From Candidatus Poribacteria bacterium (GTDB taxonomy: Bacteria; Poribacteria; WGA-4E; WGA-3G): 64,000 bases of DNA. Under the pieces are notes generated by a model. That model saw only the letters and a list, made by a program, of their open reading frames with translations, did no database searches and was not told the DNA's origin. Location of the stretch: positions 1,248,001 to 1,312,000 of the forward strand of contig CBDANF010000003.1 in assembly GCA_965197475.1 (NCBI GenBank), in the 5' to 3' direction. Shown in pieces: positions 1-50,028 of the stretch (within the stretch, counting starts at the first letter, position 1; every line of letters starts with the position of its first letter). A program made the position numbers and the translations under genes.

Positions 1-957
1 ACGTTACGTGTACGGGAAACGGATGTACAGCTCAAACCTTTCTTGAAATTCAAAACCGATAGCGAATTCATGAAAGATTTCAAAAAGGTTTCAAATAAAT
101 TACCAGACATAGGAGAACTTCCAAATCTTAGCATTATGAATGGTGCTTTTCAAGGTGTTCCAAAACTGTTAGTTGAAGTCAGCACTTTCTGGTTTGACAT
201 CTTTCCAAAAGATACACCCGAACAGCAAAAACAGGCGCACCTACTTTTCCAAGAGGCGAAAGCTTTTTATGAATCCTTGGCGGACCGGTGGAGTTTCTCT
301 ATGAATTTTGAGGACTCTATTTTACCTAACTATCTGTTTATCTTTGAATTGAAAGATCAACAAAACACAAAAACTTTTATGGATGGACATTTTCTGGAAA
401 AACTCCATGACCATTATCAAGCTTATGCATGTAAATCTATAATACACAACGGCGTTGAGATAAAAAGTTACGTCTTTCCCAATTTCAAAGAGGTTTTTGT
501 AAATAAGTCTCCTGAAGCTTCAGAGTTAGTGCCTCATGAATGGTATTGGTATTACGCGTTTACAGATGGGCAGCTCTTCTGGGCAACAGGGACCAGTCCA
601 GATTCAATTAAAATGGCATTGGATAGGAAAGCGGGAATGGGTGATAAGTTTGCCAGCAATCCGAGTTATCAAAAACTTGTTGAAAGTTTGCAGACAGACA
701 ATAACGTCCTTCTTGCGTTTTCCCCAATTATCGCAATTAAAACCTTTATGCCGTTATTGAGAAAGACAGATCCAAATAGCACAATATCAACGCAAATATT
801 ATTGGGCATGTTCACGAATCTTCCAGATAGCTATAGCGTCGGTCTTTCTGCCAAAGTTCAGAACAACGGAATTGATTCGAACATATTTCTTGCCCTCGGT
901 GATTTCAAGCAGCTTATTCAGATGTTCGGAATGCTATTTGGCACAGGGCAGATGTAA
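1..957 (+). CDS. Hypothetical protein, 5'-truncated by the window edge
   Basis: The frame is open from base 1 to TAA at 957. The ORF-track start at 43 is probably internal. Confidence 0.7.
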   Translation, partial: TLRVRETDVQLKPFLKFKTDSEFMKDFKKVSNKLPDIGELPNLSIMNGAFQGVPKLLVEVSTFWFDIFPKDTPEQQKQAHLLFQEAKAFYESLADRWSFSMNFEDSILPNYLFIFELKDQQNTKTFMDGHFLEKLHDHYQAYACKSIIHNGVEIKSYVFPNFKEVFVNKSPEASELVPHEWYWYYAFTDGQLFWATGTSPDSIKMALDRKAGMGDKFASNPSYQKLVESLQTDNNVLLAFSPIIAIKTFMPLLRKTDPNSTISTQILLGMFTNLPDSYSVGLSAKVQNNGIDSNIFLALGDFKQLIQMFGMLFGTGQM

Positions 958-1156
958 TAGGTTGTATGATTCTTGTGAATACGTTCACACGTTTTTATAC
1001 AGTTCAGAATTCAATGCCAGCGTCTCGGTCATTGATCGTGACGCTGATTTATTTTGGGATTAAAGTGTAAATTGAATACTTGAGACGTTTACAATAATGA
1101 TTGCAATCTGTTTCAAAAAATGCTACGATAGGACAAAAATTATAAAGGGACATCAA

Positions 1157-1975
1157 ATGAAAAAACCTATTTTTCTAATTCTTATCGGTATAGGGGTTTT
1201 GCTGCTTGTTGGTGGAATAGTGTTTGTAGTACCTTGGTTCGTTAATGTATTTCAAGAGATGGAACAGATGGGTGCGCAACAAGCAGAGTACAAACGCGCG
1301 TTAAGGCAATATGCAAACGAACCGCTAACTGAAGAACAGCAAAAACTTCTGTCTCAACTTCTTGAAGTAACTGGAGAAATTCTTGATCCTCAAAGTCCAG
1401 AGGGTTTAGAAGTTATTTTGTCGACTGAACCGTACCTCGCTTATATCAAAACACAAGATGGGCAAGACTATGTGGATTTTCCGAGTTATATCGCCGCAAT
1501 GCCGACACCGAACCATAGAACCGTTGTTCTGTCAAGGCTTAAGGATTTTTTGGGAACAGAGATAGAAGCGGCAGAACAAGAAATCTGGATTAACTTTTAT
1601 TACATAATTCGGGATTGGAGCAAGACAGGGAAAGACGTACTTGCTAACAGGAAGGAGTTTAACGAACTGCTACAACAGCACTTGATTAAACCCTTAATGA
1701 ATGAGGTGTCGGGAACAGAAGGGTTAACCAGTCAAATTTTAAAGATGGGGATGGTTTCTGCATCTATGACAGAGGACAATGAAGTGTTTCATAGTGCATG
1801 GCACGCACGTTTGAAAAGTCACGGAACACAAGAAGGATATTTGCGATGTGCCATTGCAACCCCAGCTGAATTTGCCTTGATGCGTTCATTTTTTGAGGAT
1901 GCTGCTGCATTTGAAACGTGGATTACAGAACCGTTTGAAGTAGAGGAAGAGACTGAAGGACAGGAAAATGAGTAG
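1157..1975 (+). CDS. Hypothetical membrane-anchored protein
   Basis: ATG at 1157 after AAGGGA; N-terminal hydrophobic helix IFLILIGIGVLLLVGGIVFVV. Confidence 0.7.
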   Translation: MKKPIFLILIGIGVLLLVGGIVFVVPWFVNVFQEMEQMGAQQAEYKRALRQYANEPLTEEQQKLLSQLLEVTGEILDPQSPEGLEVILSTEPYLAYIKTQDGQDYVDFPSYIAAMPTPNHRTVVLSRLKDFLGTEIEAAEQEIWINFYYIIRDWSKTGKDVLANRKEFNELLQQHLIKPLMNEVSGTEGLTSQILKMGMVSASMTEDNEVFHSAWHARLKSHGTQEGYLRCAIATPAEFALMRSFFEDAAAFETWITEPFEVEEETEGQENE

Positions 1976-44576: not shown

Positions 44577-46481
44577 ATGAAGAAATGGACACACCGTACT
44601 ATTGTTATCGGACTACTGTTAATATGTAGTGTTACATTTGCACAAGAGAATGCCGAAGACTGGATGCCCGATCCTTCGCTACGCCACCAAATCAGGATGC
44701 GCTTGAGACTGCCTGATAACTTTCCACTCACAAAAATAGAACTCAAACGGCTTACATTTTTCGATGATCGGACTGGCGATATTCGTGATATTACCGGCTT
44801 AGAACATGCAACCTATCTTGAACATCTTGATCTTGAAAGTTGCGAAATACTTGATTTGAAACCTTTTGAGAAGTTAGCATCGCTTGAACATTTTCGGGTT
44901 TTAAAATTGGATGGAAACGATCCAAAATTAACAGATATTACGCCGCTCTCATCTCTAACTCAGCTCACATATTTAGATTTAGGTAAAAATTATATTTCGG
45001 ACATAACGCCCCTTGCGAATCTAACACAACTACAACATCTTGATTTAGGTAAAAATTATATTTCGGACATAACACCCCTTGCGAATCTAATACAGTTAGA
45101 GACATTGATTCTAACAAATAACATCCTTTTAGACTTTACGCCAGTTGAAAACCTACCGCTTCAAACATTTGAACATGACTGGATTTGTGATGTTCCCATG
45201 AAAGATGTTGCAAGCCGACTTGAAAGAAGAAGTTTTCCTGCAATTGTTCACGTGTGGCATATACGTGAGGCTGAAGGGTTAGACCATCCAAAAGTAGGTT
45301 TATTTTTTGGATCCTATCGGTATAAACTACGGAGAATCATCGAAACAAATATAATAGATTATATAGGACCAAGCGAAGAATCTGTTATGTCTCACTATGA
45401 ACAATTTCGGAGAAAAAACCCCGATGTAATTCAGCTCAGAGGCATGATATATAGAGAGGCTTGGCACACACAATTTCCAGAGGATTCACCTTACTGGTTA
45501 AGAGGTAAAAATGGTGAAAGATTAAGAAGTGTTCCGAGTGATCCTAATAATTTGTCCTATTACATTGACTTTACTAAACCCGAGACTATTGATTTTATTG
45601 TTCAACAAGCGGTAGCGGTCGCAAGATGTGGTTTATTTGATGGGGTCGTCTTTGATTGGTGGACAGATTACCATGCAATTCTAAAAGACAGATCGCGAGG
45701 TCGTATTCTAGTGCATAGTGTCCAAGTAGAACAAAATGCACGCGACGAAATCTTACGACGTATCCGTGCAGAGGTGCCAGAAGATTTTATTATTATCGGA
45801 AATGGAAATCGAGGGAAAAACATGCGCACCGCTTGGGCATGTAATGGTTCCACAATGGAACTTGGACTCGATTATCCTGGTGGATATACACATGGAGGGT
45901 TAGCTCAAATTGATGATGCGGTATTTTGGGTATCAGAAAGCATGCGTGAACCGCGCGTGAATGCTGTTCATTTTGATGGTATTGAATACGAACCTTGGGA
46001 TTCCCCCAACAATCAGCAGATGATGCGTGTTTGCTCAACGCTTGTCCTTACGATGTCTAATGCTTTTTTTAGTTATAGACCTGATAATCAACGCGATTTT
46101 AATTGGTATGATTTTTGGGATGCCGATCTCGGTAAACCGGTCGGAGAAAAAAGACAACGTTATAATAACATTGACGGTCTGTTTATCCGTGAATACACAA
46201 ACGGGTTCGTAGTCTATAATCGGAGTTACGCCGAACAAACGATTGACTTTTCAACTCCAATAAAGAGCGTTGCCAGTGGCAAGATCAGCTCACAACAGAT
46301 AGTTTCCGATTTAGACGGTGACATTTTCTTAAAAATAGACTTTGATCTAAATGACGATGGCGAAATCAATATACTTGATCTCGTTATTATCGCAAACGCC
46401 TTTGGAGAAGATGCTCCCGACATCAATGGTGATGGCATCGTTGATATTCGTGATCTTATATTGGTAGCAGGTGCATTGTAA
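44577..46481 (+). CDS. Secreted LRR + putative TIM-barrel glycoside-hydrolase-like domain + dockerin-like protein
   Basis: Signal peptide; WMPDPSLR cap; LRRs; CGLFDGVVFDWW; REYTNGFVVYNRS; DLNDDGEINILDLV and DINGDGIVDIRDL. Confidence 0.8.
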   Translation: MKKWTHRTIVIGLLLICSVTFAQENAEDWMPDPSLRHQIRMRLRLPDNFPLTKIELKRLTFFDDRTGDIRDITGLEHATYLEHLDLESCEILDLKPFEKLASLEHFRVLKLDGNDPKLTDITPLSSLTQLTYLDLGKNYISDITPLANLTQLQHLDLGKNYISDITPLANLIQLETLILTNNILLDFTPVENLPLQTFEHDWICDVPMKDVASRLERRSFPAIVHVWHIREAEGLDHPKVGLFFGSYRYKLRRIIETNIIDYIGPSEESVMSHYEQFRRKNPDVIQLRGMIYREAWHTQFPEDSPYWLRGKNGERLRSVPSDPNNLSYYIDFTKPETIDFIVQQAVAVARCGLFDGVVFDWWTDYHAILKDRSRGRILVHSVQVEQNARDEILRRIRAEVPEDFIIIGNGNRGKNMRTAWACNGSTMELGLDYPGGYTHGGLAQIDDAVFWVSESMREPRVNAVHFDGIEYEPWDSPNNQQMMRVCSTLVLTMSNAFFSYRPDNQRDFNWYDFWDADLGKPVGEKRQRYNNIDGLFIREYTNGFVVYNRSYAEQTIDFSTPIKSVASGKISSQQIVSDLDGDIFLKIDFDLNDDGEINILDLVIIANAFGEDAPDINGDGIVDIRDLILVAGAL

Positions 46482-47393: not shown

Positions 47394-47410
47394 AGTTATT
47401 CTTTAAAATG

Positions 47411-47449
47411 GGAGGCAGACCATTGTAAGGTGATTTGCCTCCTATTTTT
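47411..47449 (+). terminator. Likely intrinsic terminator
   Basis: GGAGGCAGACCATT-GTAA-GGTGATTTGCCTCC followed by TATTTTT; lies between convergent genes. Confidence 0.6.
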
Positions 47450-47512: not shown

Positions 47513-48217
47513 CTAAAAAGGCAAGCTGAGTTGCTGCGGCGTTGGTTCGGTTGGCAAAAGTTGTTTATTACCCGTTAGAAGTGCAAGGTAATAATCCTTA
47601 TCGTTAAATTTCTGTTCATCAATCAGTCCATTTTTGGATAACGAAACAAATGACGCAGCAGCGCGCGCTTGGCAATTCAACGAGCGATTTGGATTGAAGA
47701 CAATGTCTGAGAAACCTTGAAACACTTCAAGTTCTTGCATCAGATCTTTCTTTTTCTGATACAATGCAGTGATATATAACCAATCGTAAAAAGCCGTTTT
47801 AGGTTCAATAGGAAAATCTTCTCCGCAGAAGTTAAAAGTGATCAACTCTCCCGAATTTTGCAAACGCTCGTCTGTTTTCGCGGATCGGCTTGAAACCGAA
47901 TATAAATTGCGGTAAGGACCTCCATTTTCAAATACCTTACTTCCTTGATACGCACACTCCACACTCATTTTCTGACCACTTGGTGTTTCCAACGGTAGAT
48001 TAAAAGCACTCAACGATACCCCAAGCCGTGATGCCGATTTTCGCGATATTTCCAAAATCGGAGCGATTCCCTGCTTTTCGGCAGCGTCATGTAAAGATAA
48101 AATGGTTTTTTGCATCTGCGATTTTGCAAAACCGGGATGCCATTTGAATTCTATATCTACCGTTTCAACATACGGAAATCTGTTGAAATCAGGGGTAAAA
48201 ATGGGACGGTTTGCCAT
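47513..48217 (-). CDS. DarT1-associated NADAR-type antitoxin
   Basis: MANRPIF...FKWHPGFAKSQMQK...LEISRKS...LSAFNL...SVECAYQGSKVFENGGPY...FYDWLY...FSDIVFNP...NCQARAAA; directly downstream of the DarT-like ORF. Confidence 0.82.
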   Translation of the reverse strand: MANRPIFTPDFNRFPYVETVDIEFKWHPGFAKSQMQKTILSLHDAAEKQGIAPILEISRKSASRLGVSLSAFNLPLETPSGQKMSVECAYQGSKVFENGGPYRNLYSVSSRSAKTDERLQNSGELITFNFCGEDFPIEPKTAFYDWLYITALYQKKKDLMQELEVFQGFSDIVFNPNRSLNCQARAAASFVSLSKNGLIDEQKFNDKDYYLALLTGNKQLLPTEPTPQQLSLPF

Positions 48218-48228
48218 TGTTTTAACTC

Positions 48229-49095
48229 CTAAAAAGGTATATCACCGTCAAAATCATCAAGTTCCTCATCATTACCGTCACTGAGGTAAGAAAGAGGAAT
48301 ACCATCATCGTTAAATTTTTCAGGCCTCCATACTTCATAATCACATCTCGCATCAAAATACTTCCGATCAACGAAAAACTTATCAGAAAAAGTTCCAATA
48401 TAATTAGAACGCCATTGCTCCAAAATAGTTGCATTCCGAAAATGAATCGCGTTAATGTACTCCGTTGGAATCTGGTCAAAAACAAGAACCTCCGCTTGAG
48501 GGTGTGTCGGATAATTCTGAGGTATTTGCAAGTCTTGGTGCTTGATGCCGTAAAAATCTCCAAACAAATCTTTTAACGTTTCAGTTTTTTTCCTTTCATT
48601 CAATGGAATAGAACGGACAGCATTAGAGGCGGCATTTCGCTGGCAAAACGCGCAATCCAATTCCCATAACACCTTTGCATCAAGCAGTAGAACAACCCAT
48701 TGGGAATCGTTGACTTCTTCTGATTTCATCCCTTCTCTAATGCTATAGAACATTTGGTAGTTTGGAAAACTGATGCTCAAACAATTCGCTTCTGGGCACC
48801 GGTCGGCGCGATCAGCGTCATTCCACCAAAATTGTTGCCCGCGTTCATGCAAAATACTTCGTCCTAACAATCCTTCTTGTAGAATACTTTGAAGATTTTC
48901 GATCCGTGTAAAATGGCAAAGTGTTTCTATTCCGCGTTCCTCACAAAACTGTTGTATTTGGGATGCGCGCGTATCAAAAAATTCCAGTTCCTCTTCTACG
49001 AGGATAGTTTTGTCTTTCTCAGAAACGACATCCCACAGCAGAACTACTCCATCCCGACACCCACTGGCAAGGTGCAACCATCTGGAGAAAAACAT
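48229..49095 (-). CDS. darT: DarT-type ssDNA ADP-ribosyltransferase (DUF4433-like, DarT1 clade); 3' part of a frameshifted WD40 fusion
   Basis: LCHFTRIENLQSIL, RAD...CLSISFPNYQMFY, WVVLLL, NAAS, PTHPQAEVLV (predicted catalytic Glu). The N-terminus LASGCRDGVVLLWDV is the second half of a WD40 repeat. Confidence 0.85.
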   Translation of the reverse strand: MFFSRWLHLASGCRDGVVLLWDVVSEKDKTILVEEELEFFDTRASQIQQFCEERGIETLCHFTRIENLQSILQEGLLGRSILHERGQQFWWNDADRADRCPEANCLSISFPNYQMFYSIREGMKSEEVNDSQWVVLLLDAKVLWELDCAFCQRNAASNAVRSIPLNERKKTETLKDLFGDFYGIKHQDLQIPQNYPTHPQAEVLVFDQIPTEYINAIHFRNATILEQWRSNYIGTFSDKFFVDRKYFDARCDYEVWRPEKFNDDGIPLSYLSDGNDEELDDFDGDIPF

Positions 49096-49940
49096 AAACT
49101 GCTAATTGTTGCTGTATGTCCTCTGAAGGTATTCAACTGCTTGCCTGTAGCAAAATCCCATAAATCAATTTTGGAATCACTCCCTACACTAGTACTCGCT
49201 ATCGTGTAACCATCCTGACTGAAAGCTAGAATATTGACAACATCTTCTTCAGATACCGACAAATCTTTTAGCAACACATGCTTATTAGGATCCCGTAACT
49301 TCACACTGATAATATACTTCGTTGACTCATGGTCGTGAACAAAAATATGTCTATCTGTATTGAAAACTATTGATAGTAATGATTTTACTTTAGACACAAC
49401 AAATATGGCGCGCATGTGCCCATCTGTACTGAAATTCGCTGATAAAACATTGCTTCCATATCGTTGTGGAAGGAATTCGCGGAATGAACCCGTGGCTATA
49501 TCGTACAAGTTAATCTCGCCGGACCAACTGAAATCAGGAATATCAACATCTCTAAGGATATCTAAGGAAAACTCAAGGTTATCTAAGGAAATACCCGTAT
49601 TAACACAATGAATATTGGACACGCCATTAAAATTGGACATGCCATTTAACGTTCCTAAAAAATGACCGGTAGCAATATCCCATAAATGGATTGTACTGTC
49701 TGCTGGACTTATACCAGTTAGATTGCAACTATCCGGACTGAAAACCATAGAAGTAATATATCCTGTGTGTCCGGACAGCAAAGAAATTTCTTTACCTGTG
49801 GGCGCGTCGTAAAGCAAAATGCCAGTGTTACGAGCCACTGCCAATCGAGTACCATCTGGAGAAAACTGAATATCGTTGATTGCGTCTTTTCCGAGGCGGA
49901 CTTTTGCACCTTCGGGTAAATTCCCAGGGTTTGTTTTCAT
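49044..49940 (-). CDS. WD40-repeat protein; 5' part of the frameshifted fusion with DarT
   Basis: LPEGAKVRLGK...FSPDGTRLAV; GHTGYITSMVFSPD; GHTATISSLCFSPDGCTL, then the frame is lost in mid-repeat. Confidence 0.8.
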   Translation of the reverse strand: MKTNPGNLPEGAKVRLGKDAINDIQFSPDGTRLAVARNTGILLYDAPTGKEISLLSGHTGYITSMVFSPDSCNLTGISPADSTIHLWDIATGHFLGTLNGMSNFNGVSNIHCVNTGISLDNLEFSLDILRDVDIPDFSWSGEINLYDIATGSFREFLPQRYGSNVLSANFSTDGHMRAIFVVSKVKSLLSIVFNTDRHIFVHDHESTKYIISVKLRDPNKHVLLKDLSVSEEDVVNILAFSQDGYTIASTSVGSDSKIDLWDFATGKQLNTFRGHTATISSLCFSPDGCTLPVGVGME

Positions 49941-49999
49941 AGACTTATGACTTCTTTTGCCGCTTCAGAGACCGTATTTATAATGAAACGATGGATCTC

Positions 50000-50028
50000 A
50001 TTATACCAAATTGACTTTACAATCTCAA
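50000..50028 (-). promoter_or_regulatory. Sigma70-type promoter for the WD40-DarT/NADAR operon
   Basis: Minus strand TTGAGA-N17-TATAAT with an extended TG, 60 nt upstream of the WD40 ATG. Confidence 0.65.

Follow-up and report, generated by a model that had tools for sequence, protein, structure and literature searches.

The closest described relatives of the locus considered here are the DarTG1 toxin-antitoxin systems known from Escherichia coli C7 and Geobacter lovleyi, a kind of module that bacteria employ against phages and in which the toxin DarT1 is paired with an enzymatic antitoxin of the NADAR type. The available text of PMC11543638 presents the DarT1-associated NADARs as free-standing proteins and concerns a toxin of 207 amino acids. 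A related module lies on the minus strand of a 64,000-nucleotide stretch of a Candidatus Poribacteria genome (assembly GCA_965197475.1, contig CBDANF010000003.1, positions 1,248,001 to 1,312,000), referred to below as the window. It is read here, with a probability of roughly 0.7, as a DarTG1-type module at a fixed locus of Poribacteria, consisting of a toxin of ~570 amino acids with the order propeller, linker, DarT1 domain and tail, followed by a NADAR antitoxin; in this genome the toxin gene is newly split and most likely inactive. A first-pass annotation of the window had already proposed a WD40-DarT1 fusion with a NADAR antitoxin, hidden by a one-base frameshift, whereas the resemblance of the C-terminal tail to that of SSB (single-stranded DNA-binding protein), as well as the frequency of the architecture in public data, go beyond it.

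Identity and architecture of the module

The frame downstream of the WD40 repeats (the DarT frame; Table 1) matches the Pfam family PF14487 at residues 60-230 with an E-value of 2.2e-22 (80.2 bits, cut-off 22.5) and is also called by PADLOC (E 2.3e-11). Its best solved relative is the DarT1 of E. coli C7 (8baq, E 1.7e-36), with frame residues 46-236 lying on chain residues 3-187, and DarT2 chains at E ≤ 1 were absent from the results of the same structure-sequence search. The AlphaFold model of the frame rests on an alignment of 78 rows; it has a mean predicted local distance difference test (pLDDT) score of 84.5 and matches 8baq with a template modeling (TM) score of 0.87 on the target, a root-mean-square deviation of 2.3 Å and 37% identity (Foldseek E 9.1e-20), whereas DarT2 structures reach TM scores of ~0.6 at 15-16% identity. 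Sequence and fold alike mark the toxin as a DarT1. The antitoxin frame covers positions 1-208 of the 212 in the NADAR-DarT1 profile PF22397 (E-value in Table 1) and matches the NADAR structure of G. lovleyi (8bat) with an E-value of 3.7e-56. The names given to both proteins in the first-pass annotation are thereby borne out.

The active site also points to a DarT1 enzyme. According to the available text of PMC11543638, R52, M71, N104, and E152 of E. coli DarT1 are essential and D54 is associated with loss of function; F18, R35, N48, D49, and F72 are further residues of interest, and a serine (S63) takes the position of the tyrosine in the H-Y-E motif of DarT2. When these residues were mapped by hand on the 8baq alignment, in which the chain numbering is offset by one, all had counterparts in the DarT frame (E202, N154, M115, R96, D98, F62, R79, N92, D93, F116, and S107). 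Most of the mapped positions are invariant or at least 90% conserved among 78 homologs, and H61, F62, N92, D93, R96, N154, and E202 are invariant in the 78 sequences.

A search with the DarT frame among proteins of 505-2000 amino acids yielded 106 matches from 1922 candidates. Pfam families of WD40 or propeller type are listed together with DarT in 76 of these long homologs, and a separate motif count found at least three WD motifs before the DarT core in 75/106; DarT is the only family listed in 26/106. The best intact fusion, P0001, is 612 amino acids long and 80% identical over the DarT frame. Public records label the fusions only as "DarT ... family protein," and the three clade matches with a source-given name are all Candidatus Poribacteria. 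A scan of one genome per species, which used two short peptide patterns and so would have missed distant members, recovered 44 loci. Eleven match across both domains, all titled Poribacteria (11/11) and all placed at one chromosomal locus beside a NADAR gene; in the remaining 33, which belong to Poribacteria, Latescibacteria, cyanobacteria, Chloroflexi, Bacillota, and others, the match is confined to the DarT part. Within the phylum, a DarT match at E ≤ 1e-20 is present in 36 of 176 genomes and is confined to three families (25/111, 6/11, and 4/29, as opposed to 0/24 in the other eight families); 19 of the 43 DarT matches listed there lie in open frames of at least 500 amino acids. To judge from these comparisons, the WD40-DarT1 fusion is a family rather than a chance junction. 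The first-pass annotation had named in advance the absence of such fusions from relatives as the result that would count against it; intact WD40-DarT fusions occur in many, with NADAR directly downstream.

The N-terminal part of the fusion was modeled on the intact homolog P0001. The mean pLDDT of this model, built from a 20-row alignment, is 63.9; residues 15-346 contain 28 strands, mostly at pLDDT 70-88, followed by a low-confidence linker, and the 28 strands indicate a seven-bladed propeller. The window encodes a WD40 propeller as well, except that the last two strands of its copy sit in the other frame. A complex prediction that paired the propeller (residues 1-350) with the DarT part (residues 362-612) of P0001 gave a score of 0.00, which weighs neither way. 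Pfam listed no NTPase family in either frame, which sets the protein apart from STAND/NLR-like (Avs-type) proteins, and no secretion or trafficking domain; the only families N-terminal to the toxin are of WD40 type, unlike those expected of a polymorphic toxin.

The propeller is the fast-changing part of the module. The window's propeller is only 27% identical to that of the related genome G012, where DarT is 81%, NADAR 84%, and the flanking regions 78-89% identical, and the comparison with G020 is similar (28% for the propeller, 73% for DarT, 85% for NADAR, and 83-89% for the flanks). Among 20 intact fusions, mean pairwise identity is 40% in the propeller and 61% in DarT, the propeller being the lower in 174 of 190 pairs. 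These identities show the propeller sequence diverging faster than the rest of the module. Its central blades (residues 95-240) gave no hit at E ≤ 0.001 among 370 candidates in a search of longer proteins, and local BLAST against the 106 fetched proteins matched only P0009 (33% over 168 amino acids). The central blades of the window's propeller are thus very divergent, a pattern that both diversifying selection and decay would fit.

WD40 repeats are abundant elsewhere in this genome, with 465 matches to the family and 51 open reading frames that start with the same module of ~100 amino acids. By sequence, the propeller of the toxin is a member of this lineage-specific WD40 family. The family forms tandem arrays (e.g., G000 C3:456272-489493; also L053-L059), and the frames that carry the module mostly encode pure WD40 proteins of 600-750 amino acids; a few end in domains resembling cohesin, dockerin, FlgD-Ig, or secretion tails, and one (C3:777059-779584) ends in a trypsin-like peptidase. 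The linker between propeller and DarT1 domain varies as well. In a 98%-identical relative seen in two public sequencing runs (X4 and X5), 248 other letters replace 44 nucleotides of the linker (window 48960-49005), and because this replacement agrees with the long linker (FDIDEINAIAQQ...) of P0003, P0008, and P0009, linker length is variable.

The DarT frame ends in ...DDFDGDIPF, with acidic residues leading into a terminal I-P-F, and so carries the motif of an SSB C-terminus (SSB-Ct). The available text of PMC5872125 describes the SSB hexapeptide DDDIPF as highly conserved and as the docking site of SSB's partners. Among 14,877 six-frame open frames of at least 80 amino acids in this genome, only two end in D[ILVM]PF, namely the DarT frame and the genome's SSB (162 amino acids; PF00436, E 6.6e-33), which ends in TEDDIPF. 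A strict acidic-IPF ending was found in 52 of the 106 long homologs, many of them with exactly DDDIPF and some with two copies, and a looser tail pattern in 65/106. Stand-alone cyanobacterial DarT1 proteins end otherwise (...DWQMW), except for one (L044), which carries the tail.

DarT has other partners besides the propeller. Sigma-70 regions occur in 3/106 of the long homologs, and NADAR plus a macrodomain in 1/106. Ten proteins without WD40 families were rescanned, and nine have an N-terminal region of 290-1170 amino acids that matches no Pfam family; the tenth is P0010. Tail-bearing DarT1 homologs with such an N-terminus include P0014, P0018, P0032, P0033, and P0081 (~420 amino acids) as well as P0030 and P0034 (~1100 amino acids), and these regions may represent further partner modules. 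The 419-residue N-terminus of P0014 reached a best score of 0.83 against a protein atlas, within the range of shuffled proteins. In P0010 (951 amino acids, two DarT domains), P0086, and P0091, and at loci L029 and L031, DarT is joined to a complete sigma-70 factor (regions 1.2, 2, 3, and 4), a frame that could be a real fusion or a gene-calling artifact. At this same chromosomal locus, some Poribacteria encode DarT and NADAR in one open frame of 460-469 amino acids (L021:3025-4347, L006:1549-2901, and L024:3010-4254), with a second, separate NADAR gene following in L006 and L024, and P0043 (618 amino acids) combines DarT, NADAR, and a macrodomain. The one-frame DarT and NADAR proteins are, on their domain content, toxin-antitoxin fusions.

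A resident locus and its possible functions

At 44 of the 52 loci compared, a NADAR gene neighbors the DarT match; this set contains some duplicates of a single place. In the window, the module is flanked by genes for a 354-amino acid membrane protein with no Pfam assignment, a group-1 glycosyltransferase, and a 3-keto-disaccharide-hydrolase-like protein. The same genes surround the module in L010-L015, L018, L021, L024, and L039, and this recurrence marks the module as an old resident of one chromosomal site. The toxins found at the site vary in form, with one or more propellers before DarT (608-866 amino acids), DarT and NADAR in one frame (L021 and L024), or short forms.

Decay at this site is common. 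An internal stop interrupts 9 of the 43 DarT matches in the phylum, and several others are fragments. Five genomes of the same genus that have no DarT match were surveyed at the locus, two of which were uninformative. G003 (L060, G003:C1:856395-860444) retains a full-length orphan NADAR gene (1368..667) directly after the upstream membrane-protein gene; it is 85% identical to that of the window and keeps its AGGAG motif, and no toxin gene is present. G017 (L061) has only a NADAR remnant (residues 126-232), and in G021, where the downstream gene is ~920 nucleotides away, there is neither toxin nor NADAR. The deletion in the window is one more step in this series. A single locus displays the whole life cycle of the module, from the intact form through the split gene and the orphan antitoxin left behind by toxin loss to complete absence. 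Orphan NADAR copies also deserve attention on their own account, since the available text of PMC11257639 reports that phages turn orphan antitoxins resembling NADAR against DarTG1.

From the chemistry established for DarT1 and NADAR, an intact copy of the toxin is predicted by homology to ADP-ribosylate guanine in single-stranded DNA (ssDNA), which would block replication, and the NADAR hydrolase would remove the mark. The propeller would gate or aim the toxin, e.g., by binding a trigger protein, and is inferred to act as a sensor, targeting or autoinhibitory domain, as the first-pass annotation had also suggested; both the speed at which it diverges and the swapping of N-terminal modules at one unchanging site would fit a recognition module. 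The SSB-like tail might deliver the toxin to SSB-docking proteins where ssDNA is exposed, or might act as a pseudo-substrate or decoy. A more elaborate version of this scheme, attractive but doubtful, is an immune sensor with two baits, in which the propeller would recognize phage proteins while the tail, as an SSB decoy, would be seized by those proteins of the phage or the replisome whose usual docking partner is host SSB. In either case the enzyme would be released or recruited to ADP-ribosylate exposed ssDNA, NADAR would reset the cell, and the WD40 family of the genome would serve as a pool of receptors.

The module may also have nothing to do with phage. It is unlikely, though deserving of consideration, that the WD40-DarT1/NADAR pair controls the replication or growth of the symbiont itself, as in mycobacteria, or that its WD40 part aims at host factors. 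The available text of PMC12170906 reports that DarTG controls replication in Mycobacterium tuberculosis, and a tail of the SSB type would suit a toxin aimed at the replication forks of the cell itself. The module occupies a chromosomal, syntenic locus that is vertically kept and lies outside any defense island, and the genome's very large WD40 family consists of repeats of a "eukaryote-like" kind. However, the module is patchy even within the genus, where a DarT match is present in 12 of 39 genomes; frequent pseudogenes and a fast-evolving N-terminal module are the usual pattern of conflict genes, and the Pfam result gave neither a secretion signal nor a trafficking domain.

The one-base deletion in the toxin gene

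The WD40 frame begins like its homologs (MK..NLPEGAK..) in the alignment and breaks off behind the first strand of its last blade, its final seven residues (PVGVGME) being out of frame. Intact homologs read ...ISSMCFSPDGCTLASGCKDGIVMLWDV... without a break across the point at which the frame of the window changes, and the solved propeller of PkwA has WD40 repeats that align with residues 9-32 of the DarT frame; the second frame therefore holds the last two strands of the last blade. This agrees with the first-pass annotation, which had noted that the WD40 frame stops in mid-repeat and that the DarT frame contains the remainder. The two frames overlap by 52 nucleotides, and the NADAR ATG lies 11 nucleotides past the stop of the DarT frame (Table 1).

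Table 1. Coordinates of the split toxin gene, its antitoxin gene and associated signals, numbered from the first letter of the window
Feature	Position	Strand	Description
WD40 frame	49044..49940	-	298 amino acids; ends ...SSLCFSPDGCTLPVGVGME*; Pfam WD40 E 6.4e-22
DarT frame	48229..49095	-	288 amino acids from first ATG; begins MFFSRWLHLASGCRDGVVLLWDV; stop 48229-48231
NADAR antitoxin gene	47513..48217	-	234 amino acids, intact; PF22397 E 7.5e-86
Promoter-like site TTGAGA-17-TATAAT with TG	50000..50028	-	11/12 hexamer matches; ~60 nucleotides 5' of WD40 start codon
One-base deletion site, splitting the toxin gene	49071..49072	-	T behind 49071 in X3, X4, X5; none in X1
Orphaned last two strands of blade 7 (LASGCRDGVVLLWDV)	49027..49071	-	residues 9-23 of DarT frame
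DarT1 ADP-ribosyltransferase domain	48286..48960	-	frame residues ~46-270; catalytic Glu is residue 202
Acidic C-terminal tail ending DGDIPF	48232..48258	-	resembles SSB C-terminal tip
AGGAG ribosome-binding motif for NADAR	48226..48230	-	overlaps DarT stop codon; 8 nucleotides before ATG

Nine public sequencing runs contain part of the stretch, and Logan contigs of four of them (X1, X3, X4, and X5) were aligned to it. The X1 contig (1319 nucleotides, word depth 22.6) is identical to the window over 48897-49900 without a gap, the extra base behind 49071 having a depth of 0 of 22.6. X3, another sample of the same study, carries an extra T behind 49071 on the plus strand at a depth of 50.7/50.7, and apart from this base its contigs differ from the window at 0 letters over 48750-49053 and 49024-49900. 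The same base is inserted in X4 and X5, which come from another study, at depths of 138.4/138.4 and 83.1/83.1; this relative differs from the window at 15 letters over 885 nucleotides, and of the 10 differences listed, a small sample, seven alter a residue and three are silent. The frameshift most likely reflects a genuine deletion of recent origin, segregating in populations that do not otherwise differ over this stretch.

The extra T corresponds to an A that, on the minus strand, stands between two Cs. There the intact form reads GCACACTTG, its codons TGC ACA CTT GCC AGT GGG encoding C-T-L-A-S-G, and the window lacks the A of ACA. The first-pass annotation had expected one C to be restored, with GG as opposed to GGG in the reads; in this detail it was mistaken, as no run of G or C is involved. 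Its prediction of a single repaired WD40-DarT protein followed by the NADAR gene held, since the restored base gives 291 + 279 = 570 amino acids. The toxin gene is intact in relatives and broken in this genome. With a propeller that lacks two strands and a DarT frame without a recognizable ribosome-binding site, the toxin in this genome is most likely inactive, while NADAR stays whole.

It is rather improbable that the split gene works as two pieces, with DarT made from the ATG at 49095 as a free or weakly regulated toxin that is checked by NADAR and possibly rejoins the propeller by strand complementation in blade 7. This ATG is in frame, the DarT domain has all of its catalytic residues intact, NADAR is intact, and stand-alone DarT1 proteins exist and start near residue 46 of the DarT frame. 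However, no AGGAG-like motif is seen in the sequence before the ATG, whereas the NADAR start does carry one, and a consensus scan of the region found no promoter-like site before the DarT frame. The same scan placed the best of its six sites before the WD40 frame; as six is no excess over the shuffle mean of 6.7, this site is to be taken as a consensus match only. In the model of the DarT frame folded alone, the first 30 residues are disordered and the orphaned blade strands have pLDDT < 50, and many toxins at the same locus in relatives are clearly dead.

A sequencing or assembly error, which would leave the organism with an intact 570-amino acid gene, appears quite improbable. The genome is a three-contig metagenome-type assembly with 6.97% contamination, and indels are the commonest error in long-read assemblies. 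Against an error, the separately built X1 contig has the same deletion with the other allele absent, and the site is not a homopolymer. X1 is possibly the sample from which the window was assembled, and may be the same data and hence not independent; moreover, contigs discard rare variants, so that X1 may carry the intact allele at low frequency. Programmed ribosomal frameshifting or a reversible phase switch is scarcely credible and was rejected on the sequence context of the deletion, for although the frames overlap and intact and broken forms both occur naturally, the site has no slippery heptamer, homopolymer or simple-repeat tract, and relatives encode the protein in a single frame. Of the three causes that the first-pass annotation had left side by side (an assembly error, an inactivating mutation or a reversible switch), the inactivating mutation is thus the best supported, as the deletion appears in an independent contig set, another sample is intact and there is no repeat tract; the other two fare poorly.

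Several observations count against the overall interpretation of a DarTG1-type defense module that has been newly split. NADAR has no PADLOC match, and the DarT frame scores 30.3 bits against the cut-off of 150 of the NCBIfam toxin_DarT equivalog NF048013, and is therefore not filed under it. The neighbors within ~6 kb are housekeeping genes, with no defense-island or mobile-element genes among them, and a role in growth control would be equally compatible with the sequence data as one in defense. The tail and linker are predicted to be disordered, and the models show no docking. Finally, because X1 may be the source sample, it demonstrates the deletion in the reads but not in a second population. 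The interpretation of a resident, recently broken DarTG1-type module is nevertheless retained at the probability given above.

Other features of the region touch on its expression and surroundings. An inverted repeat at 47410-47441 (GGAGGCA ... TGCCTCC, loop of ~18 nucleotides) with a short run of T after it occupies the gap between the NADAR and 3-keto-hydrolase-like genes, which are convergent; it was not called by the terminator scan because its loop exceeds the rule of that scan. A public-run search found a small share of the words of the stretch in one RNA run. Further along, on the plus strand (window 44577-46481), is a gene whose 634-amino acid product combines leucine-rich repeats with a GHL15-type glycosyl-hydrolase-like domain and is dockerin-like at its end.

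Comparison with described systems

A literature search found no paper linking DarT or DUF4433 with WD40 or β-propeller domains or with an SSB tail, the available text of PMC11543638 and PMC9503650 included; the supplementary sequence lists of PMC11543638, which lay outside the search, might include long forms. A DarTG1 variant with an N-terminal propeller and an SSB-like tail is undescribed as far as this search could find, in keeping with the first-pass annotation, which had not recognized the architecture as a known one, even though the fusions are frequent in public data. To our knowledge, there is no settled account of what activates DarT toxins in the course of infection. With its variable propeller and SSB docking tail, the family offers testable handles on the activation and targeting of DarT, and it is of solid interest in its own right, the broken copy in the window less so.

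On nearly all sequence and fold criteria applied, the NCBIfam equivalog score being the exception, the pair is of the DarTG1 type, and the system with which most is shared is DarTG1 of E. coli C7 and G. lovleyi (Schuller et al. 2023, PMC11543638; 8baq and 8bat). Both the DarT1 fold and its residues recur here, a DarT1-associated NADAR is encoded directly downstream, and a serine replaces the tyrosine of H-Y-E, as the available text of that paper gives for DarT1. In contrast to the stand-alone 207-amino acid toxin of E. coli, the domain is preceded here by a propeller and linker of ~345 amino acids and ends in an SSB-like acidic tail, a comparison that covers the E. coli chain up to its final 21 residues; in addition, the toxin gene is broken in this genome. 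DarTG2, which comprises DarT2 and the macrodomain antitoxin DarG and is known from Thermus and Mycobacterium, has in common with the module a fold of the ADP-ribosyltransferase superfamily, an action on ssDNA (predicted here by homology), and an enzymatic antitoxin. The differences are the low identity and TM score noted above, the lack of a macrodomain partner, and a score below the NCBIfam DarT cut-off.

CapRel-type fused toxin-antitoxin proteins and STAND/Avs proteins with WD40 or TPR sensors join a variable protein-binding module to a conserved toxic effector. The logic of the present fusion, with a variable module and a toxic effector, is similar, but here there is no NTPase domain, the repeats are N-terminal to the effector, and a separate enzymatic antitoxin has been kept. 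The likeness to the bacterial SSB-Ct (DDDIPF) lies in an acidic run followed by IPF at the end of the toxin, which in the genome's own SSB takes the form EDDIPF; the difference is that the tail is carried here by a predicted ssDNA-modifying enzyme rather than by a protein of the oligonucleotide/oligosaccharide-binding (OB) fold.

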